This document shows positions 3,731 through 63,757 of a stretch of DNA of 64,000 nt, piece by piece. Location: assembly GCA_041649175.1 (NCBI GenBank), contig JBAZNR010000001.1, positions 514,332 to 578,331 on the forward strand, read 5' to 3'. The notes below the pieces were generated by a model that was not told the origin of the DNA, searched no databases, and was given only the letters and a program-made list of their open reading frames with translations. The stretch comes from Candidatus Omnitrophota bacterium (GTDB lineage: Bacteria; Omnitrophota; Gorgyraeia; Zapsychrales; JBAZNR01). Position 1 is the stretch's first letter; each line of letters starts with the position of its first letter. The position numbers and the translations under genes were made by a program.

Positions 3731-3802
3731 TGCCCTGTCGTCTAATGGTAGGACATGAGATTCTGGATCTCAGTGTCTAGGTTCGAGTCCTAGCGGGGCA
3801 AC
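3731..3802 (+). tRNA. tRNA-Gln (anticodon CTG)
   Basis: Cloverleaf with a 7-bp acceptor stem (tgccctg/cggggca), anticodon loop ttCTGga and T-loop ggttcgagtcc. No encoded CCA. Confidence 0.85.
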
Positions 3803-9876: not shown

Positions 9877-10771
9877 AAAACAGTTTGATAAAAAAGTTGA
9901 TGCCAGCTTTAGCACGGTCGGGTTGATGGCGACTTTTTTTGGCTTGATCGTTTTAGCGGTTCTTGTTATCGATGTTTTTATGGACGGCTACAAGCGTTTG
10001 AGCTGGGATTTTTTTATGAATTATCCGTCGCGCAAACCTGAACAAGCCGGAATTCTTTCAGCTTGGGTAGGGACTCTTTGGATCATGGTCACTACCGCTC
10101 TTTTGGCGATTCCCTTAGGGGTTGGGTCTGGGATTTATTTGGAAGAATATGCCCGGCGTAACCGCTGGACAGATTTTATTGAGATCAATATTGCGAATTT
10201 AGCAGGCGTTCCCTCGGTTATTTACGGCATTTTAGGCCTAGGCCTTTTTGTGCGCATGATGCATTTAGACCGTAGTGTTTTAGCCGGGGGGCTTATTTTG
10301 GCCTTGCTTGTTTTACCGGTTATTATTTTATCAACACGTGAGGCCTTACGCAGTGTTCCTCATTCTATCAGAGAAGCTTCTTATGCCTTAGGAGCTACCA
10401 AATGGCAAACGGTGCGTTTTCAAGTTCTTCCGGCCGGATTTGGCAGTATTTTAACCGGAATTATTTTAGCGATGTCGCGCGCCATCGGAGAAACAGCGCC
10501 TCTGATCACCATAGGCGCCCTGACGTATATTCCATTTTTACCGTCGCCTCCGGTTTCTTTTTCAAAAGATCTTCCGTTTGTCAATGTGACGCTCAAAGGG
10601 TTCTTTGAGCCTTTTACGGTTTTACCGATCCAGATCTTTAATTGGGTTTCTCGTCCGCAAAAAGGATTTCTTATTAATGCCGCGGCGGGAATTATTGTTT
10701 TGCTGGCGATCACGCTGGCTATGAACGGATTCGCTATTTACCTTCGTTATAAAAATCAGAAAAGGTGGTAA
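9869..10771 (+). CDS. pstA: Phosphate ABC transporter permease
   Basis: Multi-TM protein with an EAA motif ([43 protein letters not shown]). Overlaps pstC by 8 nt. Confidence 0.9.
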
Positions 10772-12760: not shown

Positions 12761-12908
12761 GCCAAAGTTCTCTCTCAATATTCTTAAGAAATACGAAAAT
12801 TCTCTTGTTTCGCCTCTGAGACGACACTAAAATGATTTTATAGAATAGAAAAGCAGCGTTTTTATCTGAAAAATATTTTAGGATATTAAAACATAATTGC
12901 CCGCGGCT

Positions 12909-14387
12909 ATGACAAGAACCTTAAAGATCTTTCTTCTTTTTATTTTTGCATCATCCGGTTTCTGTCCCTTACTGTATGCTCAAGGGCAAGACAGCCTTTA
13001 TCTTCGCGCGCCTAAGATCAGCCAAGAAACAAAAACCGTAAAACAAAATTCCATCCAGAAAACTGATTCCGCCAATCCGCTTCAACCCGTTGAAACAAAA
13101 GAATATTATGATTCCGGAGAATTAAAAGCGAGTTATCTGTATCAAAACGGCAAGAAAAACGGCCCGGCCAAAACGTATTTTAAAAACGGCACTGTTAATG
13201 ATGAAGTCATTTATAAAAATGATAAACTCAACGGCAGTGCCCGCAAGTATTATGAAAACGGTATTCTTCATCAAGAGGCGTTTTTTAAAAATGGGGTCCT
13301 GGAAGGAAAAGGAAAGATTTATGACAGCAAAGGCCAATTAGCGGAAGAATATGTTTATAAAAAAGGAAAGCCAATTATTCCTCGAGGGAAACAAGAAGTT
13401 AAAAAAAGTGAGCCGCCAAAAGTAGTCGAAAAGAAAGAGCAGGAAAGATCCGATATGGATTCGGGCCTTTCCCCTGAAGAAGAAACAGCGCTTGTCTTAC
13501 GCGCTCCTCGGTCCGGAACGCAAAGTGAGCCGGAATTCTTTTATTTGCGTTCACCGGGATGGGCGGGAGCCCCGGGGTCAGAAAGCAAAAAAGAAGAAGA
13601 AACGGTGAAGAAAGAAGAAGCTTCGCCGTGGGAATTTGAAGCCGGATATGAAACCTCGCAAATCGTTTATAAAGAACCAACCGTTATGCGCCAATCCGGC
13701 TATATGCAGGGAGTATTTTTTTCTGTGACGCATCGCCCCAAATATCTTCAGATCAAAAGCTTGACGTATGAACCGTGGCTTAATATGTTCCGCTATGATT
13801 TTCGTTACGCGTTCGGCGAAATGTATTACAAGGGCCGGCTTTCCAACGGAACGCCTTATAATGTCGACGATATTCCGGATTATATGATAGAAACACGTCT
13901 GGTGGCTGGACATGAATTTGAGGAATTTGACCCAGCTAAATTAGCTTTATACTTTGGCTTGGGATATCGCTATCTTAATGATGATATGTCGATCGATCCT
14001 GCCGGCTATGAGCGTGAGTCGAATTATGTTTATATCCCGGTTGGTGTAGAGTATATGAAGCCTACAAAAGACGATTGGTGGTACGGAGGAATGTTGGAAT
14101 TTGACGGCCTTGTCGGCGGATGGCAGATCAGCCATGTCAGCAATGTGAACCCCGGTTACGGTGACTTAACAAATAATCAAACAAAGGGGTTTGGGGGAAA
14201 ATTTTCTCTTCGTCTGCAAAAAAAGGCTCAAGACCTGGATTTTCTTCTAGAACCTTATTATCGATATTGGTATATGGCTGATTCTGAATTAACACCCTGG
14301 CTTTTAAACGGCGTTTCGATCGGTTCCGGCCTGGAGCCTCGCAATCATTCCAATGAATACGGCGTAAGGTTCATTGCCCGCTTTTAA
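12909..14387 (+). CDS. Secreted MORN-repeat protein with a C-terminal beta-barrel-like domain
   Basis: Signal peptide (MTRTLKIFLLFIFASSGFCPLLYAQG). Three or four MORN/YwqK-type repeats (YYDSGELKASYLYQNGKKNG..., YFKNGTVNDEVIYKNDKLNG..., YYENGILHQEAFFKNGVLEG...). A Lys/Glu-rich linker, then a C-terminal region rich in aromatic-alternating strands ending ...RFIARF. Confidence 0.6.
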   Translation: MTRTLKIFLLFIFASSGFCPLLYAQGQDSLYLRAPKISQETKTVKQNSIQKTDSANPLQPVETKEYYDSGELKASYLYQNGKKNGPAKTYFKNGTVNDEVIYKNDKLNGSARKYYENGILHQEAFFKNGVLEGKGKIYDSKGQLAEEYVYKKGKPIIPRGKQEVKKSEPPKVVEKKEQERSDMDSGLSPEEETALVLRAPRSGTQSEPEFFYLRSPGWAGAPGSESKKEEETVKKEEASPWEFEAGYETSQIVYKEPTVMRQSGYMQGVFFSVTHRPKYLQIKSLTYEPWLNMFRYDFRYAFGEMYYKGRLSNGTPYNVDDIPDYMIETRLVAGHEFEEFDPAKLALYFGLGYRYLNDDMSIDPAGYERESNYVYIPVGVEYMKPTKDDWWYGGMLEFDGLVGGWQISHVSNVNPGYGDLTNNQTKGFGGKFSLRLQKKAQDLDFLLEPYYRYWYMADSELTPWLLNGVSIGSGLEPRNHSNEYGVRFIARF

Positions 14388-14510: not shown

Positions 14511-14975
14511 ATGAAAAAGACGATTTATATGATCCTAGCATTATGTCTCGTTGCCTCATTTGCTTTTGCGCAAGAAGAAGCGGTTATGGACGCTGATGTG
14601 AATGCGGTTGTGGCCGATCAACCTGTTGTTGACGAGGCGATGGCGGTAGACGAAGCAGTTGAAGAGGCGATGCCGACAGATGAGGGAGTTGTTGTCCTTC
14701 AGGGTTATGTTTTGGACAATATGTGCGCCCAGGCTCATCAGAACGACTTAGCCGAATTTGCACCGACACATCCGAAAACCTGTGCTTTAGAACCTGATTG
14801 CGCGGCTTCCGGATTTTCTATCTATGCGGATGGTAAGCTTTCTAAGTTTGACAAAGAAAGTTCAGCCAAAATAGAAGAATTCTTGAAAGCGGAAGGCAAT
14901 GAATCCAAGGTGGAAGTGACAGCCAAAGACGTCAACGGTGAATTAAGCCTCATATCCATTACCAACCAGTTATAA
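14511..14975 (+). CDS. Small secreted acidic protein with a 4-Cys C-terminal domain (hypothetical)
   Basis: Signal peptide MKKTIYMILALCLVASFAFAQ and an acidic V/A/D/E-rich repeat region. Perfect RBS aaaggaggtg. Confidence 0.55.
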   Translation: MKKTIYMILALCLVASFAFAQEEAVMDADVNAVVADQPVVDEAMAVDEAVEEAMPTDEGVVVLQGYVLDNMCAQAHQNDLAEFAPTHPKTCALEPDCAASGFSIYADGKLSKFDKESSAKIEEFLKAEGNESKVEVTAKDVNGELSLISITNQL

Positions 14976-15004: not shown

Positions 15005-15047
15005 AGGGGCGGTTTTTCCTATAGGAAAAACCGCCCCTCCGTTTTTC
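15005..15047 (+). terminator. Rho-independent terminator
   Basis: aggggcggtttttcc-tata-ggaaaaaccgcccct followed by ccgttttt. Confidence 0.8.
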
Positions 15048-15269
15048 CGCTCATTTTTTCTTAAGAAAACTTTTTAAAAGACTTTAAGATCTTTAAATTC
15101 TAGCCCCCGCTTTGCGTTTTCTCCCATCGGCAAAAAAAACTTGACATTCTAATAAGGTGTGGTATTTTTGTAAAGCTTTAGTCTAGAAAACCGCTTTCTT
15201 TATAATGTCAAATTACCTAACCCATTCTAAATCTAGTACTTTTAACCCTCAAAAAAACATGGAGGATGC

Positions 15270-18200
15270 ATGCTTAGTTATATAGAACGCAGAAAAGACA
15301 ATATGTCTTTTAGGCTTATTTCTTTCTTTGTCTTGATCACTTTTGTCGCCAGCCTTGTTACTCCGCCCATGGGCTACGCACAAAGTTTTAATATCAACTT
15401 ACCCGTTCCGGGAACCATGCTTCTTCCCAGTCCTGTCTTTACGCCGCCTTTACTTCGTGGCATTGAAATTGACCCTGAAAATCCGCTTCATTTTGGTTTT
15501 ATTATGCACGGCGGCGACCAAAAGGTTAAAGGCGAAGAGCTGAAAAAAGAAGCTATGCAATCCATCAAGTACTTTTTAGCCGCCCTCACCATTCCAGAAA
15601 AAGACCTCTGGGTCAACCTTTCTCCATACGAAAAAGGGCGCATTGTTCCCGAAAAATTAGGTTTAACCGACTTAGGCCGCGACCTTTTAGGCCAAGATTA
15701 TCTTTTAAAACAACTGGCCGCGTCTCTTATATATCCCGAAAACGATCTAGGCAAGAAATTCTGGGATAAAGTCTACAAAAAAGCTTTCGATCTGTATGGC
15801 ACAACAGAAATCCCCATCAATACTTTCAACAAAGTCTGGATCGTTCCTGAGAAGGCAACTGTTCTTGAAACCAACGGCATGGCCATTGTCGCCGACAGCC
15901 ATTTAAAGGTTTTGTTGGAAGAAGATTATCTGGCGGTTAAAAACAATCTTTCCAACACCGAAAAAGGTACGGATATTTTAGAAGCCGCCAAAGTGAAAGA
16001 ATTAAGCCGCGTAACCTCACCGGTTGTGCGCGAAGTCATCATTCCGGCTATTGAAGAAGAAGTCAATGAAGGAAAAAACTTTGCTTTGTTGCGCCAAATC
16101 ACCAATGCCGTTATTTTGGCCACTTGGTACAAAAAAGCTTTAAAAGAAAGTTTATTAGGCAAAATCTATGTGGATAAAAGCAAGGTTTTAGGAATTAACC
16201 TTGAAGATACATCCGCTAAAGAAAAGATTTACGAGCAATATTTAGCCGCCTTCAAGCAAGGCGTCTACAACTATATTAAAGAAGACTATGACCCCAATAC
16301 TCAAGAAACCATTGAACGCAAATATATTTCCGGTGGGTACGGGACGGAATTAAATGGTATTCCTCTCTCTCAAAGGGTTGAGATTGCCGAAACAGTCTCC
16401 CAACTGCCCGCTGATGCCAGAAACGATGTGGCAAAACTTGTTTCCGAGCCAACCACTGTTACAAATTTTGATACTAATTTAACCGAACCTAATGAACCTC
16501 CTTCTCCTCTATCCAACAAAAAAGATGCAGGTATGGTCAGAAGCCTTTTGTCTGCCGTTACAGATTTTATGAATCAAAAAAGATTTGAACGTATTCGCCG
16601 TACTTGGTCAGCAAAAGATATTGCGGATCTATTGGGACGAGAAGTAGCTGTCGCAGAACCAAAATTTTCTAATTATTTAGCGGATAAGTTATTTGCAGCA
16701 ATGAAAATAGCCCAAGATAATAAATCGTTTATCGCGACCGGTGGTGTTATGGATGGCCCATCGGCAGCGGCGATGGCGGAAGCCGGACATACGGCGCTTT
16801 ATTTCAGCGGCTGGCAAGCTTCCAATCATTGGGGAGGGCCGGATTTAGCCAAGTACCCTTATGACGTTATTGCCAAGAATATAAAAGAAATCTATAAGTT
16901 CTTAGTAAATAAGGATCAAGATCAGCAAATTCGTATGCGTGCGATGTCAAATAAATTAGAAACACTTATGTCGAGGGTGTTCACAACTATACACGAAAAA
17001 GACAGTCTTGAAATAGAACAACAGAAAGATAAGTGGGTTGAAGAATTTATTAGTATTATTAAAAGCGATGACGCGATCTTTATCAACGATCTTCGCTATA
17101 ATCCTAAACTTATTTCTGAGTACGCGGAAGCTCTTATTACTGATGCGATCGCTCAAAAAGGAAAATTAGATCAAAAGATGAGGGATGGTATCCGCGATGG
17201 TATGTTTGGTTTCTTAAGCACGCACCTGGTAGATTATCTTATCCCTATTTTTGCCGATGGTGATACCGGACATCAAGCCGTTAAAGAAATGGTCAAGCTT
17301 TATGTTGAGGCTGGTGCTGCGGCTATTCACTTAGAAGATCAGGCGCATGGCTTAAAGAAATGTGGGCACATGGCAGGAAAAGTTTTGGTATCAACCCGTG
17401 AGCATCTCATGAGATTGCTTAATGCCAGGCAACAGGCCGATGAATTGTTCTCTAGAATTATGATCATTGCCCGTACCGACGCCGAAGCTGCCAATCTTTT
17501 AGCAACCAACGAAGACCCCGTTGACCATTATTTTATTACCGGAACGACCAACCAAAATCTTCCTTCTTTGTCCTATGTGATCCGCCTAGCTCGTCGAGAA
17601 GTGGCCGAATTTGATAAGAGAGCAAAAAATGATGATCTTATCGCTGAAATCCGAAAACTTATTCCCGGGATCAAGGACGGAGAATTGGAAGACATCCTTT
17701 CGCCTAAAACTCCGGAGCAATTGGTAGATGAATTATCTCAGAAATCTCCGGATATTGCTGCTGCCATACAAAAGGTATGGGCTTTACGCGGAGAAGTTAA
17801 CGGCCAACGATTAGAGCCAAACGATGAATTGTTTACCGAGCACGATAATTTTCCGATGACAGCTGGCTGGCTTTGGGATAATGCGGAATCGATTAGATTT
17901 AATGAAAACGATCTTATTAAGCTCAGCACAATTCTTAAGGCTCAAGACGGAAGCACAATGACCGTTGAAGAAGTTTTAAATCGTAAGCCCGCTAAAATTG
18001 CCGATGAAGTCAAAGCCATGGAAGCCTTAACCGAAACATGGGGCCAAAAAGCCGGCTTAAAGACGTATGGTGAAGCAGTCGTTGAATCTTTAAGTCAAAG
18101 TACGATTGAGAACAAGGAACAACTTATTGCGCAATGGAAAGAAGCAACAGATCCTCTTAAAAATACCCTTTCCCATGATCAATTAAAAGCTTTGGCTAAG

Positions 18201-21200
18201 AAATTCGGCGTTGAAATTAATTGGGATGCCGAAAAAGCCAGAACCTACGAAGGCTATTATCAATTGAACAAAAAATTGGGGGCAACGTTTGCCGCGGTCA
18301 GACAAAGGATCTTTGCTACCATTGCCGATAGTAGCTGGATGGAACAGGAAAAACCCGACGTCAAACAAGCAAAAATTTTTGTAGATAATGTTAATGCCGA
18401 TCCGAAGGCAAAAGGCGTTCTTTTTTCCATTAATCTTTCACCTTCTTTTAATTGGCTTAATCCGGATAACTGGAAATCGTCATTAACCGCGCAACAAATC
18501 GCCAATGTCAAAAAAGCCATGCAGTTTGGTAATTTTGATTGGAGCAATTGGGAGACATGGCGTGAATATCGTCCGGATGTTATGGCTATGCTTGACGCCA
18601 TTATGGAATTTAGCAGTGAAATGGGCAAGGCAGGTTTTAGTTTCCAATTTGTGACGATCTTTCAAGATCATATCAGCACACTGGCGATGTTTCAGGCTGG
18701 AAAAAGGCTTAAAGAATCCGGTGCCGGCGGTTTTGTTATGGTCGGGCAAGCTGAAGAGCAAAAACACCGTTCTCGTTTCTTAGAACATCAAGCGGCGGCC
18801 GGTGTCAAACGCGTTGGCGCTCAGGATAATTTAGTCGCGCGCGGTTCATCGGCAACGGGTGCGACCGGTAAGGGCGATACCATGGCGCAGTTTCAACCAG
18901 CTACTCCAAAAGCCGACAAAGGCCATGTGGTGACATTAACACCTCCGGAACAAGACAGATTGAACAAGCTTTCGGTTACATTTCCGGTTGACTTAGTCAA
19001 TAAAACAGCCGCGCAATTGACGGCTTTAGGATTACGCGGTGCCTTAAAGCGTGTTAATGATATTTTAAAGAAAGAAGGCGTTGACGCCGAACAAAAGCTT
19101 CTATCGCTTAATCTTCTTTTTTCTGATCTTTATCAAAGAACAGGTAAGGAAGAAATTGAAGCGGTTGTAGCGATGTTAGCCCAAAGACAAATTTCACCAA
19201 ACGCGTCAGAAATTCTCACCAAAGAAGAATTATCCAAGATCAGCCGCGCTATTAAAGATACCGCCGATGCCATGGCTAAACGCATCTTCCAGAAAATTTC
19301 GGAAGACGAAGGCATTATTTTAATGGTACGGGTGAGTGAAGGTTTTGGGCGCGATGAAGTCGCGGAAAGTTTTAAATCCAATGAAGTTATTGTGCCTTTG
19401 AATCTTAAAGGAGAGATCAATCGTATCTATGATGCGGTTGTGACTGGAAGCGATGTTTATCGCTCTGAAACCGACCAAAAAGTATATCCGATCGTTAATG
19501 CTGTTATCGATGTGATCGAAGGAACAAATATGTTCGTGACTAATTCTAACGATCATACGACATCCAGCATCAAGGATTCCGAATCGGGTTCTACCAGCGT
19601 GATCGTGACCGGGCCAGGCGTTGCCAGTTTAGGCAATGCGCCCGACGGTTACGTGGGACAATTTGAAACCAATTTGGGCGACAAGGCCGATGAATTCAAA
19701 CAAATTAAAGTCAGTGTCAAGGGCCAAGACTACGCGCTTTATGATCCCGAGCTTTATGCGGTGGCTCCGGAAATGGTCATTGAATACTTGAAATTTCTAG
19801 CTCGCAGCCGCAATCAATTGTTAAGCGATTTACAAGAAGAAATTGTGGTCATGGATCGTGTCCGCGAAGAAAAACTATTGCAGGCCTTGAAAAGCGCCAA
19901 AGAAACGTTCAATATTCAAGGTTTGAAAGTTACTACCATCAAGGATGGAACGGTGGCTCACGGCCTTAAGGCTTCTATGACGCCGGAAATGTTTAAACAA
20001 GCGACAGGGCAAGAGTATGGTGTTCATAAAACCATGATCACCATTGGCGGTTCGGCGGAAGGGTTTATGAATTTAGCCATCGCCGGTGGATTAAAGGCAA
20101 GCGGTGCTGTCGGAGCTTTACGCATTTATAGCGGTAAGATGAATAAAGACGACGATGGAGTGGAAGTTGATGACCACTCACTGCGTTATAGTTTTTGGTC
20201 TGATGAGATTGAAGATATTGTCATGTTGCGCGATGATGCTCAAGATGTTTTGGGTGGAGAGAAATTATTTACTCAAGCGGATGTTCAAGGTAGCGTGATG
20301 GGAGCTTTTTCGTTTATCAGCACCAACGGTGTTTTTGGCATAGAAGGCGCTACGTCTTCGGAAGAAGGAACAAGCGTCAAAACACTTATTATCAATGCGC
20401 TTGGGTCAACCCCGACTATTTCTATTACACAAACTGAAGTCACTCCCGCCGACCTCGCGATCTTCAGCGATAAAAAAGACGCGGGGCATGTGGTGATGCT
20501 GGAAACCGGAGACAAAACAGCCTTGGTTAGCCGTATTGATCCGGAATTAGGCAATGTTTTTGAAGCGTATGGAGACATTTTAACGCCGCAAGTGGTTCAG
20601 GTTTTAGAAAAAATTGCTCCACTAAGCGAAGAATTATCTGTTTTACGAGAGATCCGTGAAACACGTTATGTGGATCGCCAAATTAATCGTAAGAAAATCG
20701 ATTTCTTATCCGAAACAAATTCCGATGGATCAGATGCCGTTATTCCGGGAACAAATATTACGGTTAAAGATGCCAGAGCGGGAAAATTTGAAGGCGCTCC
20801 TATTCCGGCTGACCTACAGCGTCAATGGATCCAGCTAACCGGCCCCGCCGCTAAATCTCCGCAGGACAAGATCGGATTTTCAAAAGAACAATGGACTGAG
20901 GCTGATTTGCGCAATGTTGCCCATGCTCTTTTAAGCGGAGCGGACGGCATGATGTTCGACGGCGAAGATGCCTTAGGGCAATTGGGCACGATGTCTTTGG
21001 ACAATATTCGCGCTTTAACTTTGGCTTACAAGAAAGACCCGGTTTTCCTAAAAATAGCCGAAGAGGTTGCTAATGAATATATCAAAGCCGGAAAAAGGGA
21101 TGCGAGTTGGAATTGGAGAGAACTGATCGATAATAATTTCACAACCCGCATTTATCGTGTTCGCGGATTGCATTTAGATGACCGGCATACGCAGTTTAAG

Positions 21201-46536: not shown

Positions 46537-48177
46537 ATGCTTGAATGGCCTAAGACTAACGATGCGATCGGGGCAGTTAATCGTGGTGATCCGGCGGAAT
46601 CCGGTTTGTGTACATTGTGCCGCGCGGATTGCAAGGGCAGATGTGAAACATGGCTTTCCAGTTTAAGAGGCAGAAGTCTTCTTTACCCCCGCGATTTTGG
46701 TGTTATTACCGCAGGAAGCAGAAATACATCTCACGTTGGCGTATCTTATAGTTCGCTAAGAATTCAAGGTTACAATTACGGAGCCCACGGCCTTCCCAAA
46801 GGTTTGTCGAATTCGGCAGACGATTGTATCTTCCCCAATGTTGACGTAGGAACAAAATTTGGCAGGGAAATCGAAACCAAGGTCCGTGTTCCTATTATGA
46901 CGGGCGCTTTAGGTTCTACCTTTATTGCCGCGAAATATTGGGATTCCTTTGCTATCGGTGCGGCTTTAGTAGGGATGCCGATCGTTGTCGGAGAAAATGT
47001 AGTTGGTGTAGACAAAGAATCAGAGATCAAAAAAGGAAAGATCATTAAAGCTCCGGAATTAGACAGGCGAATTGAAACCTATCTAAAGTTCTTTGATGGA
47101 TTTGGCGCTATCATTGTTCAGATGAACGTGGAAGATACTCGTAACGGTGTTGCCGAATATCTGATGAAAGAATATGGTGATAAAGTTATTATCGAGCTTA
47201 AATGGGGCCAAGGCGCAAAGGATATCGGCGGAGAGATCCAAGTCAGTAATCTTGATTATGCCATCTTCTTAAAGAAGCGCGGCTATATTGTTGATCCCGA
47301 TCCGACGGATCCGACGGTGCAAAAAGCTTTTGAGGAACGGGCGATCAAGACATTCGCACGTCATAGCCGTTTGGGAGGCACGGATGCCGCCAATCCGGAA
47401 GAAGTCCGTGAACAATTTATGAAGGAAGTGGAGTATTTACGTAAGATCGGCTACAAAAGAATTACATTAAAGACAGGTTCTTATGGGATGGAAGCACTAG
47501 CCATGGCCATCAAATACGCGTCGGAAGCCGAACTTGATCTATTGACCATTGATGGATCCGGTGGCGGAACAGGGATGAGCCCGTGGAATATGATGGAGAC
47601 TTGGGGTGTTCCGTCACTTTTACTTCATGCGAAGGCTCATGAATACGCGTCTGTTTTAGCCAGTAAAGGACATAAGGTTGTGGATATGGCTTTTGCCGGA
47701 GGCTTAGCGCGAGAAGATCATATTTTTAAAGCGCTGGCTTTAGGCGCGCCGTTTACGAAGCTGGTGTGTATGGGCCGCGCGGTGATGATCCCGGGATTTT
47801 TGGGGTCGAATATCGAAGGCGTTATTAATCCGGACCGAAAAGAAAAAGTGCACGGCAATTGGAGTGATCTGCCGGCAAATGTCACGCATTTTGGGGCTTC
47901 TCCGGAAGAGATCTTTTCCGGATATCATGATGTGCGCAAAAAAGTAGGGGCAAGCCATATGAAGGACATTCCTTATGGGGCGGTTGCCATGTGGACTTTG
48001 GTGGATAAGTTAACGGCTGGTTTACAACAACTTCTCGCCGGTGTGCGTAAATTCTCGGTCACACAGATCTCCCGAGATGATCTTTTAGCGGCTAATCGAG
48101 AGACAGCCCAAGAAACAGGAATTCCTTTTATTACCGAAGCGCTTGATGAAAGTGCTAAGAAAATATTAGGAGAGTAA
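46537..48177 (+). CDS. Archaeal-type glutamate-synthase-related FMN oxidoreductase (GltB central-domain-like stand-alone protein)
   Basis: N-terminal Cys cluster (CTLCRADCKGRCE) followed by a TIM-barrel FMN domain resembling GltS domain 2 (...GSGGGTGMSPW...). Confidence 0.7.
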   Translation: MLEWPKTNDAIGAVNRGDPAESGLCTLCRADCKGRCETWLSSLRGRSLLYPRDFGVITAGSRNTSHVGVSYSSLRIQGYNYGAHGLPKGLSNSADDCIFPNVDVGTKFGREIETKVRVPIMTGALGSTFIAAKYWDSFAIGAALVGMPIVVGENVVGVDKESEIKKGKIIKAPELDRRIETYLKFFDGFGAIIVQMNVEDTRNGVAEYLMKEYGDKVIIELKWGQGAKDIGGEIQVSNLDYAIFLKKRGYIVDPDPTDPTVQKAFEERAIKTFARHSRLGGTDAANPEEVREQFMKEVEYLRKIGYKRITLKTGSYGMEALAMAIKYASEAELDLLTIDGSGGGTGMSPWNMMETWGVPSLLLHAKAHEYASVLASKGHKVVDMAFAGGLAREDHIFKALALGAPFTKLVCMGRAVMIPGFLGSNIEGVINPDRKEKVHGNWSDLPANVTHFGASPEEIFSGYHDVRKKVGASHMKDIPYGAVAMWTLVDKLTAGLQQLLAGVRKFSVTQISRDDLLAANRETAQETGIPFITEALDESAKKILGE

Positions 48178-57640: not shown

Positions 57641-57724
57641 GCGCGGGTGGCGGAATTGGTATACGCGCACGTTTGAGGGGCGTGTGGGGCAACCCGTGAG
57701 AGTTCAAGTCTCTCCCCGCGCATT
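57641..57724 (+). tRNA. tRNA-Leu (anticodon GAG) with long variable arm
   Basis: Acceptor gcgcggg/cccgcgc, anticodon loop ttGAGgg, a long extra arm and T-loop gttcaagtc. Confidence 0.8.
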
Positions 57725-63679: not shown

Positions 63680-63757
63680 GGCCCCATCGTCTAGCCTGGT
63701 CCAGGACGTCTGCTTCTCAGGCAGAAAACACGAGTTCGAATCTCGTTGGGGCTACCA
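63680..63757 (+). tRNA. tRNA-Glu (anticodon CTC), CCA encoded
   Basis: ggccccatcgtctagcctggtccaggacg...ttCTCag anticodon loop...cgagttcgaatctcg T-arm...tggggctacca. Confidence 0.8.

Follow-up and report, generated by a model that had tools for sequence, protein, structure and literature searches.

Very large proteins in which domains of central metabolism are tiled along a single chain have been described from the bacterial phylum Omnitrophota in two preprints. West-Roberts et al. (2023; 10.1101/2023.11.21.568195) reported TPI, PGI, fructose-1,6-bisphosphatase (FBPase), PGM, aldolase, and PPDK in proteins of at least 30,000 amino acids (aa); the giants were predicted to be extracellular, a localization that the authors themselves doubted. 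For proteins of at least 10,000 aa, Nielsen and Lui (2026; 10.64898/2026.06.07.730766) set apart a "multi-enzyme metabolic cluster" class and found a signal peptide or transmembrane (TM) helices in 94%. Here we describe a protein of 2950 aa encoded at 15270..24122, on the plus strand of a 64,000-nucleotide stretch of a Candidatus Omnitrophota genome (GenBank assembly GCA_041649175.1, contig JBAZNR010000001.1, positions 514,332 to 578,331), hereafter called the window. Between conserved N- and C-terminal modules it carries isocitrate lyase (ICL), a GlpX-like phosphatase, malate synthase (MS), and a SerC-like aminotransferase. An earlier note, made by a model from the DNA sequence, had read these four enzymes in this order, and hidden Markov model (HMM), PDB, and fold evidence bears this out; its account of an ICL-FBPase-MS-aminotransferase protein left about 500 residues (signal peptide, N-module, and C-module) unaccounted for.

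The giants, or Archaeovorins, share with the 2950-aa protein the phylum and a single chain tiled with central-metabolism domains (in their case also glycogen synthase, receivers, and methyltransferases, according to the sections cited). A signal peptide is often predicted in the giants, and in both cases enzymes of cytoplasmic type are predicted outside the cell. However, the giants are defined at 10,000 or 30,000 aa and above and usually have many TM helices, whereas the protein described here has a signal peptide only. The mid-size family framed by N- and C-modules, the junction motifs, and the cysteine exclusion described below are not mentioned in those parts of the two preprints that treat the giants, and no prior description of the family was found in the open-access literature. 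The earlier note had considered such a protein not described. This holds for the four-enzyme composition, which is new, but multi-enzyme mega-proteins of at least 10,000 aa in Omnitrophota were already known from the preprints. A second point of comparison is the ICL-MS fusion of nematodes and Euglena, to which the note had pointed (Caenorhabditis elegans and euglenid papers, PMC4880444 and PMC8219788). There, too, ICL and MS lie on one chain; these fusions, however, are eukaryotic, two-domain, and intracellular (organellar), and lack a signal peptide, end modules, and GlpX-like or aminotransferase modules. In the Omnitrophota family, unlike the eukaryotic fusion, the ICL-MS pair belongs to a cargo that is shuffled, and either enzyme may come first.

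The 2950-aa open reading frame (ORF) is a genuine single gene of this bacterium. It runs intact from ATG to TAA, as seen in the ORF listing and by direct reading, and encodes a product of 327 kDa; the single frame is thus as the earlier note had it, with all ten motifs that it quoted present in the order given. With about 5.8% stops among random codons at about 43% G+C, the probability that 2950 codons without a stop arise by chance is about e^-176. The promoter-like region, ribosome-binding site (RBS), and terminator that had been attributed to the gene were also seen. A sigma-70-type promoter-like site at 15141..15168 (+), assigned by consensus match only (TTGACA, 16-nt spacer, TATTTT, TG before the -10 hexamer), lies downstream of the preceding gene's own strong terminator (15005-15038). 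A Shine-Dalgarno GGAGG, read directly at 15261..15265 (+), precedes the ATG by 4 nt, and an intrinsic-terminator-like hairpin with a 20-bp stem followed by a T-run is found at 24142..24186 (+). No riboswitch or other RNA was found in the 5' leader, Rfam at gathering thresholds matching only tRNAs in the window.

Separate genes could have been joined in assembly, or could seem joined where sequencing errors erased stop codons, and this has to be considered since the source is a metagenome-assembled genome (MAG); in addition, the ICL|GlpX-like and MS|SerC junctions are bridged by no protein of another genome. A chimeric assembly, which the note itself had named as a danger, is contradicted by an independent Logan assembly contig (run SRR8542065), which holds an identical 2950-aa product together with the same downstream genes, and by codon-position G+C that is uniform from end to end of the ORF. 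The N|ICL junction is bridged by four other proteins, the junction at residue 1216 carries the genome's own junction motif, N- and C-modules stand at both ends as in well over a hundred complete relatives, and no leftover RBS, start, or stop was found in the linkers. The identical ORF in an independent assembly, together with the intact frame and gene signals, makes misassembly or lost stop codons very unlikely, and we give an artifact next to no credence. Public collections also contain the exact protein, encoded on a 1.23-Mb contig of a Candidatus Omnitrophota MAG; its GenBank name, phosphoserine transaminase, covers just one of its four enzymes.

The ICL module (aa 430-1212; 16557..18905, +) matches Pfam, NCBIfam, and PDB entries: PF00463 with 305.4 bits (cut-off 26), TIGR01346 with 314.8 (cut-off 275.9), and 7ebe, a fungal-type ICL, as best PDB match (E 3e-71) aligned over the whole module. 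It is of the long, eukaryote-like type with two insertions. The motifs SGWQ, ADGDTGH (aa 662), KKCGHMAGK (696), ARTDAEAA (734), and SPSFNW (1057) are kept; KKCGHMAGK, ADGDTGH, and SPSFNW all align to 7ebe. The MS module (aa 1745-2435; 20502..22574, +) is of the A type and is recognized with varying strength. The TIM barrel (PF01274) scores 163.2 bits against a gathering score of 26.4, the MS_C domain stays under its gathering score (19.8 against 23.1), and the equivalog TIGR01344 is under its cut-off (187.8 against 594.5). The best PDB matches, 3cux and 3cuz (type A), have E values of about 1e-35 and align over the whole module. RVRGLHL (aa 1963), GRWDYI (2077), WVAHPG (2180), and MEDMATGE (2283) are kept; we take the Arg of RxRGxHL to be catalytic, GRWDY to form the Mg site, and MEDxAT to hold the catalytic Asp (E. 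coli MSA R166 and D447). The retention of these motifs suggests that both modules are active, as a prediction from sequence.

Between them lies a module (aa 1221-1725; 18930..20444, +) that standard models miss. A domain HMM check of the four enzymes succeeds for ICL, the MS TIM barrel, and the aminotransferase but not here: PF03320 gives no match, and no direct match was obtained in Pfam (E<=10), in NCBIfam (E<=1), or with phmmer against PDB. The reading as GlpX was correct all the same. A profile built from alignment A1, which comprises the GlpX-like stretch (aa 1216-1750) and eleven relatives sharing it, has a class II FBPase/SBPase (3roj) as its best PDB match, which is sub-threshold and aligned on the signature motifs. 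The AlphaFold2 (AF2) model of the module (pLDDT 88, pTM 0.89) retrieves only GlpX-family structures among its top 18 Foldseek matches in PDB (E 7e-16 to 4e-10), the next match having an E of 0.28. Comparison by hhalign with GlpX from the annotated E. coli MG1655 genome gives 91.8% probability (E 7e-7) and pairs the motifs DxxEGT, NAPD-Y, (K/R)xR, DGxV, and GGxxEG, three of which lie at aa 1414 (DVIEGT), 1559 (DGTVAHGL), and 1592 (IGGSAEG). In a profile search of 5.8 billion proteins, relatives of the module at 38-45% identity do carry PF03320, among them a stand-alone Patescibacteria enzyme and aldolase-GlpX fusions.

The residues that we take to bind metal and phosphate in E. coli GlpX are D85, E88, T90, Y119, K164, R166, D186, D188, and E213. 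Conserved in the module are D1414, E1417, T1419, Y1461, R1532, D1559, and E1597, while K164 is replaced by R1530 and D188 by T1561, both throughout the subfamily. The fold is shared with the class II FBPases of E. coli and Mycobacterium tuberculosis and with the cyanobacterial FBP/SBPase (TM score about 0.7 on the target). The module differs from these solved structures by its low identity (12-18%), a helical extension, the absence of cysteine, and the negative PF03320 search. As judged from sequence and model, it is a divergent GlpX subfamily in which a 130-aa helical extension (aa 1221-1350) precedes the catalytic core (aa 1351-1725), and its substrate may differ from fructose-1,6-bisphosphate. 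A separate helical adaptor that would also follow ICL in the relative P0003 was considered and found unsupported, the extension being seen only together with the GlpX-like core.

The SerC-like class-V aminotransferase (aa 2445-2840; 22602..23789, +) is again recognized by Pfam, NCBIfam, and PDB. Aminotran_5 scores 82 bits, the SerC equivalog NF003764 353.7 (cut-off 253), and TIGR01364 348.7, which is under its cut-off of 443.6. The best PDB match, full-length with two insertions, is a phosphoserine aminotransferase (PSAT), 1w3u (E 4e-72). The two motifs that had been quoted lie at aa 2454 (FSPGPAQLP) and aa 2808. Aligned to E. coli SerC, the module keeps the pyridoxal phosphate (PLP) lysine (K198, here K2672) as well as D174 (D2645), W102 (W2549), N239/T240 (N2713/T2714), and R335 (R2811), so that PLP and carboxylate ligands are common to both. 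The phosphate pocket, in contrast, is remodeled: H41, H328, and R329 are replaced by Y2488, Y2804, and P2805, R42 is kept as R2489, and R77 is replaced as well (S2524). The structure of Arabidopsis PSAT with phosphoserine shows the counterparts of H41, R42, H328, and R329 binding the substrate phosphate directly (PMC6043687). With three of these four direct ligands replaced, phosphoserine specificity is doubtful; the caution of the earlier note about the substrate was apt, and the alignment indicates that the substrate is probably not phosphorylated. In the homologous module of the relative P0021 all four ligands are gone, the positions being occupied by F, A, F, and P. Unlike PSAT/SerC, the module sits inside a mega-protein with a signal peptide.

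The 2950-aa protein belongs to a very large, Omnitrophota-specific family with interchangeable cargo. Besides ICL and MS proteins, a whole-protein search returned more than 100 proteins from Omnitrophota, 1,600-5,000 aa long, in which only about 12% of the query is matched (at 55-60% identity) and the cargo is quite different. Among 120 relatives, residues 1-356 are matched at the N-terminus in 119 and residues 2855-2914 in 117, the latter at a median of 22 aa from the C-terminus. Residues 1-37 (15270..15380, +) form a Sec-type signal peptide by heuristic features: a basic n-region, a hydrophobic core, TPP, and GYA|QS. F25, P32, and A37 are nearly invariant in the family, and over 275 members the median net charge of the signal peptide is +3, with an AxA-like site in 95%. 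No further strong hydrophobic segment was found in the 2950-aa protein. The N-module (aa 38-356; 15381..16337, +), delimited by alignment and profile search, ends in ERKYISGG, and its alignment (A2) has 71 invariant columns. A linker (aa 357-418; 16338..16523, +), Pro-rich in its C-terminal part by direct reading, connects it to the first junction motif; in the AF2 model of the N-module, aa 397-430 are below pLDDT 50. The C-module (aa 2855-2914; 23832..24011, +), present in relatives, begins with GGINLD and is followed by a charged tail (aa 2915-2950) and the TAA stop (24012..24122, +).

The N-module profile matched 8,362 clusters (E<=1e-3) among 1.84 billion representatives, always N-terminally, and at least 593 loci in species-representative genomes, with several paralogs per genome. 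The 78 listed loci come from MAGs titled Omnitrophota or 'uncultured Planctomycetales', plus one titled 'bacterium'. Across the family, the N- and C-modules match nothing in Pfam, NCBIfam, or PDB; the only recurrent match, DUF896 (7 of 26 members, E>=0.007), is not significant. Thirty C-modules scanned against NCBIfam and Pfam, which we take to include models for the known C-terminal sorting signals, gave no sorting-signal match (T9SS CTD, PEP-CTERM, GlyGly-CTERM, LPXTG). The idea that N- and C-module are one domain split by the cargo (YFSGG...GGIDL) was dropped, the short candidates (P0121, P0220, P0139, P0128, and P0125) being truncated fragments without a C-module.

Several smaller features of the family were also seen. 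Members are often clustered, the 78 loci holding 106 N-module ORFs, and one MAG (JBFMEN01) has 12 of these across four loci (L052, L059, L072, and L073). Two representatives, P0192 and P0195, contain two N-module stretches within one protein. A charged spacer of varying length follows the C-module, and many relatives end in LSSLN, LSLLNYN, or LSYLK (LSxLN-like), the 2950-aa protein itself ending in NLVLAGN; this short conserved tail may be a second C-terminal signal.

What lies between the end modules varies widely. Relatives carry glycolysis-related enzymes (PGM, PGI, both aldolase classes, TPI, GAPDH, PGK, PEPCK, PPDK, and hexokinase) as well as UDP-glucose pyrophosphorylase, glycogen synthase, acyl-CoA enzymes, response-regulator receivers, methyltransferases, and DnaJ. 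The GlpX-like module elsewhere adjoins PGM, aldolase/TPI, PEPCK, or PGK, and the SerC-like module in P0021 adjoins UDP-glucose pyrophosphorylase. The search for homologous architectures that had been suggested found framed relatives with shuffled cargo but no second copy of the set of ICL, GlpX-like, MS, and SerC-like modules in any of the 5.8 billion proteins searched; the closest composition is N-ICL-MS-C, in P0002. By Pfam annotation, ICL or MS is present in 21 relatives and both are present in 19 of them, in either order. Given this co-occurrence, the ICL-MS pair looks functionally coupled; it looks, from these compositions, to be the only pairing under functional selection, the full four-enzyme set being one outcome of module shuffling.

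These distributions bear on a reading along the lines of the earlier note, in which the protein is a purpose-built cytoplasmic enzyme that would take carbon from isocitrate and acetyl-CoA to malate by way of glyoxylate, with links to gluconeogenesis (FBPase) and to serine/glycine formation (aminotransferase). The pairing of ICL with MS, the fusions known in nematodes and euglenids, and the presence of sucCD and a thiolase gene just downstream agree with it, and the remodeled SerC pocket could take glyoxylate or hydroxypyruvate, which are not phosphorylated. Yet the GlpX-like and SerC-like modules have unrelated partners elsewhere, the order of ICL and MS is variable, and the set is unique; moreover, in two samples gathered via the N-module alone, none of 216 members had ICL, MS, or SerC, cargo that is thus rare in the family. 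The signal peptide is conserved family-wide, and cysteine content falls about 50-fold exactly after it, as described next. The purpose-built reading does not stand up well against these data, and we regard cytoplasmic channeling as improbable.

The 2950-aa protein contains a single cysteine, Cys698 (codon at 17361..17363, +), the catalytic residue of the KKCGH loop of ICL; in the mature part this is 1 of 2,913 residues. Seventeen plainly cytoplasmic proteins in the window average 1.2% Cys, from which about 35 would be expected in the ORF (Poisson P(<=1) = 2e-14). The exclusion is a family property. Over 230 members, the Cys content is 1.77% in the first 38 residues, 0.035% in the N-module, and 0.057% in everything after it, a step of about 50-fold, and 97 of 200 long members have no Cys past residue 45. 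A step placed exactly at the signal-peptide boundary is expected of proteins that mature outside the reducing cytoplasm. In ordinary exported proteins of the window, the part that follows the signal peptide contains 0 or 2 Cys. As a side observation on composition, His makes up 1.08% of the mega-protein against 2.13% of the cytoplasmic proteins in the window, and Trp 1.25% against 0.76%. Together, the signal peptide and the near-total exclusion of Cys argue that the mature protein is not cytoplasmic.

The few cysteines that survive are informative about function. The most recurrent contexts are catalytic, KKCGH of ICL and SCTTN of GAPDH; in the GAPDH modules of P0009, P0033, P0060, P0157, and P0158 the canonical SCTTNC has become SCTTN[S/A/N], so that the nucleophile is kept and the second, dispensable Cys is gone. 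Stand-alone GlpX relatives have 2-7 Cys each, whereas the GlpX-like module of the 2950-aa protein has none. Because only catalytic Cys residues are retained, catalysis is argued to be under selection. This bears on the possibility of a non-catalytic surface coat or adhesin, in which enzyme folds would be displayed for binding or structure and catalysis would be irrelevant. Surface-located glycolytic and glyoxylate-cycle enzymes adhere in some pathogens, at least in the cases cited from PMC4271699, and the giant proteins of Omnitrophota have been proposed in the literature as coat or adhesins. Against this, catalytic motifs are kept in all four modules, and neither the sole remaining Cys, which is catalytic, nor the pattern in the GAPDH modules of relatives fits folds whose activity no longer matters. 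We think a coat or adhesin highly unlikely.

Module boundaries are marked by a short peptide motif, D(A/K)G(H/M)V, found at three of them: DAGMV (aa 419-423; 16524..16538, +) between N-module and ICL, DKGHV (aa 1216-1220; 18915..18929, +) between ICL and the GlpX-like module, and DAGHV (aa 1737-1741; 20478..20492, +) between the latter and MS. In an unbiased count of 5-mers in the 120 relatives, end modules excluded, ASSPV/ASSPI and DAAML/ADAAM were among the most widespread words. Relative to shuffled sequences, D.AM[VLIA] is enriched 14-fold and SSP[VI] 24-fold, and both are located immediately before domain starts. The two types are almost mutually exclusive between proteins, 51 having the one, 36 the other, and 3 both. 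The "dialect" used is a property of the genome and common to its paralogs: the 12 paralogs of JBFMEN01 have 22 DxAM and 1 SSPx, the 6 of DATDQB01 have 32 and 2, and the 3 of CAYIQK01 have 0 and 9. The genome studied here conforms, with a rare dialect. P0057, a protein of 1,714 aa encoded on the same 1.23-Mb contig outside the window, is a family member without any Pfam domain and with cargo unrelated to that of the 2950-aa protein, and it carries PDKGHVTEL and PKDAGHVTML at aa 556 and 1225. Among 240 proteins, only these two have at least two D.G[MH]V sites.

Two other origins of the motifs were rejected. As scars of DNA recombination they should be alike as DNA, but the sequences around the three junctions agree at 17-22 of 51 nt, close to the chance level, and conservation is at the peptide level. 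As internal translation starts they would depend on the junction Met, which the SSPV and DxGHV dialects lack, and no properly spaced Shine-Dalgarno sequence precedes it. Most plausibly, as far as the sequence pattern goes, the motifs would be recognized by some factor that the genome itself encodes, a processing protease being the simplest candidate. Alternatively, the pattern could stem from linkers that evolve in concert within a genome.

If such a protease cut at the junctions, the protein would be a polyprotein precursor that yields N-module, ICL, GlpX-like, and MS(-SerC-C) products acting independently. This bears on processing only and is compatible with export of a catalytic enzyme string, which we favor below. 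It would account for short motifs exactly at module boundaries, conserved as peptide and not as DNA, and for their being genome-specific and common to paralogs with unrelated cargo; proteolytic processing of the giant proteins was also proposed in the relevant part of West-Roberts et al. (10.1101/2023.11.21.568195). However, no clear copy of the motif was seen at the MS|SerC and SerC|C boundaries, both common dialects (DxAM and SSPx) are missing from many genomes, and concerted linker evolution could mimic the pattern. Pfam found no protease domain in the 2950-aa protein, and none is conserved beside family members. A polyprotein that falls apart into independent enzymes is possible but, in our estimate, doubtful.

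The reading that we favor, and hold to be rather probable, is that of an exported, catalytically competent enzyme string, built on a family-wide chassis, containing a selected ICL-MS pair and possibly processed at the junctions. The Sec pathway would export the protein, with cleavage of the signal peptide after Ala37, and the mature chain would reside outside the reducing cytoplasm, in the periplasm, on the cell surface, or where the cell meets a host cell. Anchoring, sorting, or assembly would be the task of the N- and C-modules. There the ICL module would convert isocitrate to succinate and glyoxylate, and the MS module would condense glyoxylate with acetyl-CoA to malate. The GlpX-like module would dephosphorylate a sugar bisphosphate, and the SerC-like module would carry out a transamination with a substrate that is probably not phosphorylated. 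The junction motifs may act as recognition sites for a factor of the same genome, most plausibly a processing protease.

Several observations weigh against an exported enzyme string. The cargo needs acetyl-CoA and PLP, enzymes of the relatives use ATP, NAD, CoA, B12, and S-adenosylmethionine (SAM), and relatives also carry receiver and DnaJ domains, all of which are normally cytoplasmic cargo. We know of no extracytoplasmic source of acetyl-CoA, PLP, and the cofactors of the relatives, and cofactor supply outside the cytoplasm is the main weakness of the export reading. The sucCD and thiolase genes just downstream belong to housekeeping carbon metabolism and would likewise be in line with a function in the metabolism of the cell itself. 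The signal-peptide call rests on heuristic features and not on a dedicated predictor, and the N-module model is of medium confidence only. When flanking ORFs of the 78 loci were clustered in search of a secretion system, protease, or chaperone, no gene family occurred in more than five loci, and no protease or secretion gene is conserved beside family members.

The cofactor problem would be eased if the protein were a host-directed effector, exported and delivered into a host or prey cell to redirect its metabolism, with the N- and C-modules as translocation apparatus. This proposal draws on an analogy. MARTX toxins are very long proteins in which conserved N- and C-terminal regions frame interchangeable modules that differ between strains and are released at defined processing sites. 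The 2950-aa protein follows a similar logic, with conserved end modules framing shuffled cargo and marked junctions; the likeness is architectural only, since Pfam found no RTX/glycine-rich repeats or cysteine-protease domain. MARTX toxins use a C-terminal type I signal and carry toxins, whereas the 2950-aa protein has an N-terminal Sec signal, metabolic cargo, and inferred processing. The need of the relatives' cargo for cytoplasmic cofactors and partners would fit delivery into a host cell, Cys exclusion would fit passage through an oxidizing compartment, and many Omnitrophota are inferred in the literature to be host-dependent. On the other hand, the end modules are homologous to none of the known translocation domains, the neighborhood contains no conserved secretion system, enzymes of housekeeping type would be a strange choice of effector, and the genome region (GS-GOGAT, CarAB, NadE, and Pst) suggests a metabolically fairly complete organism. 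We therefore rate a host-directed effector as unlikely.

Cargo of type IX secretion offers another comparison. These proteins combine an N-terminal Sec signal with a C-terminal sorting domain. The large multidomain proteins described here follow the same logic, starting with a cleavable signal and having a small conserved domain at their extreme C-terminus. The differences are that the C-module matches no NCBIfam or Pfam model, that the phylum is another one, and that a large conserved N-module is added.

The favored reading, an exported enzyme string, can be extended to the phylum, tentatively and with the odds against it. Much of the nominally cytoplasmic central metabolism of Omnitrophota may run outside the cytoplasm by means of a dedicated class of Sec-exported, Cys-free enzyme strings, which would share an N/C chassis, shuffle their cargo, and be cut or modified at motifs specific to each genome. 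The glyoxylate shunt would be exported in some lineages, and the strings would work in the periplasm, on the surface, or in a host contact zone on host-derived metabolites. A family of more than 8,000 clusters that combines a signal peptide and Cys exclusion with cofactor-dependent enzymes sharpens the puzzle, raised by the two preprints, of where and how the mega-proteins of Omnitrophota work, and the clash between signs of export and cytoplasmic cofactor needs is the interesting part. The 2950-aa protein is small enough to be cloned and assayed by segment, whereas the giants have 40,000-147,000 aa; the genome-specific junction motif and the Cys step after the signal peptide provide handles for the whole class. 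There is also a consequence for metabolic reconstruction. With a GenBank name for a single enzyme whose phosphate pocket is mostly lost, an MS under its equivalog threshold, and a GlpX module invisible to Pfam, reconstructions from MAGs could miss enzymes and misplace their compartment. A relevant example is the glyoxylate shunt in one survey: ICL and aceB were scored absent in 176 of 176 complete genomes, according to the corresponding part of Nielsen and Lui (10.64898/2026.06.07.730766).

The window is a piece of ordinary chromosome in which one strand carries nearly everything, and nothing in it points to a mobile element or a secretion locus of its own. Among its genes are phoBR, a porin gene, pstSCAB-phoU, sucCD, a thiolase gene, cstA, amtB, GS-III, GOGAT, nadE, and carAB. 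Three small neighbors are of envelope type. A MORN-repeat protein with a signal-peptide-like N-terminus (12897-14387) and a 154-aa signal-peptide ORF without family match (14511-14975) lie upstream, and a 178-aa protein with two PG_binding_1 domains and, by reading of the sequence, a lipoprotein-signal-like N-terminus (24245-24781) lies downstream. None of the three is conserved beside other family members. Between sucCD and the thiolase gene, 27650-28747 encodes a stand-alone AAA_26 + DRTGG protein, a pair that presumably resembles the N-terminal part of phosphotransacetylases. A second, shorter glutamate-synthase-like ORF (46537-48177; 546 aa, partial Glu_synthase domain) is located downstream of gltB and gltD. 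Genes for tRNAs Gln-CTG, Leu-GAG, and Glu-CTC lie at 3731-3802, 57641-57722, and 63680-63757, only two of which are reported at the Rfam gathering threshold. Nearly all real genes of the window are on the plus strand, and the cumulative GC skew climbs monotonically. Both features fit the organization with one strand per replichore that is reported for Omnitrophota genomes in the section of West-Roberts et al. (10.1101/2023.11.21.568195) on genome organization.

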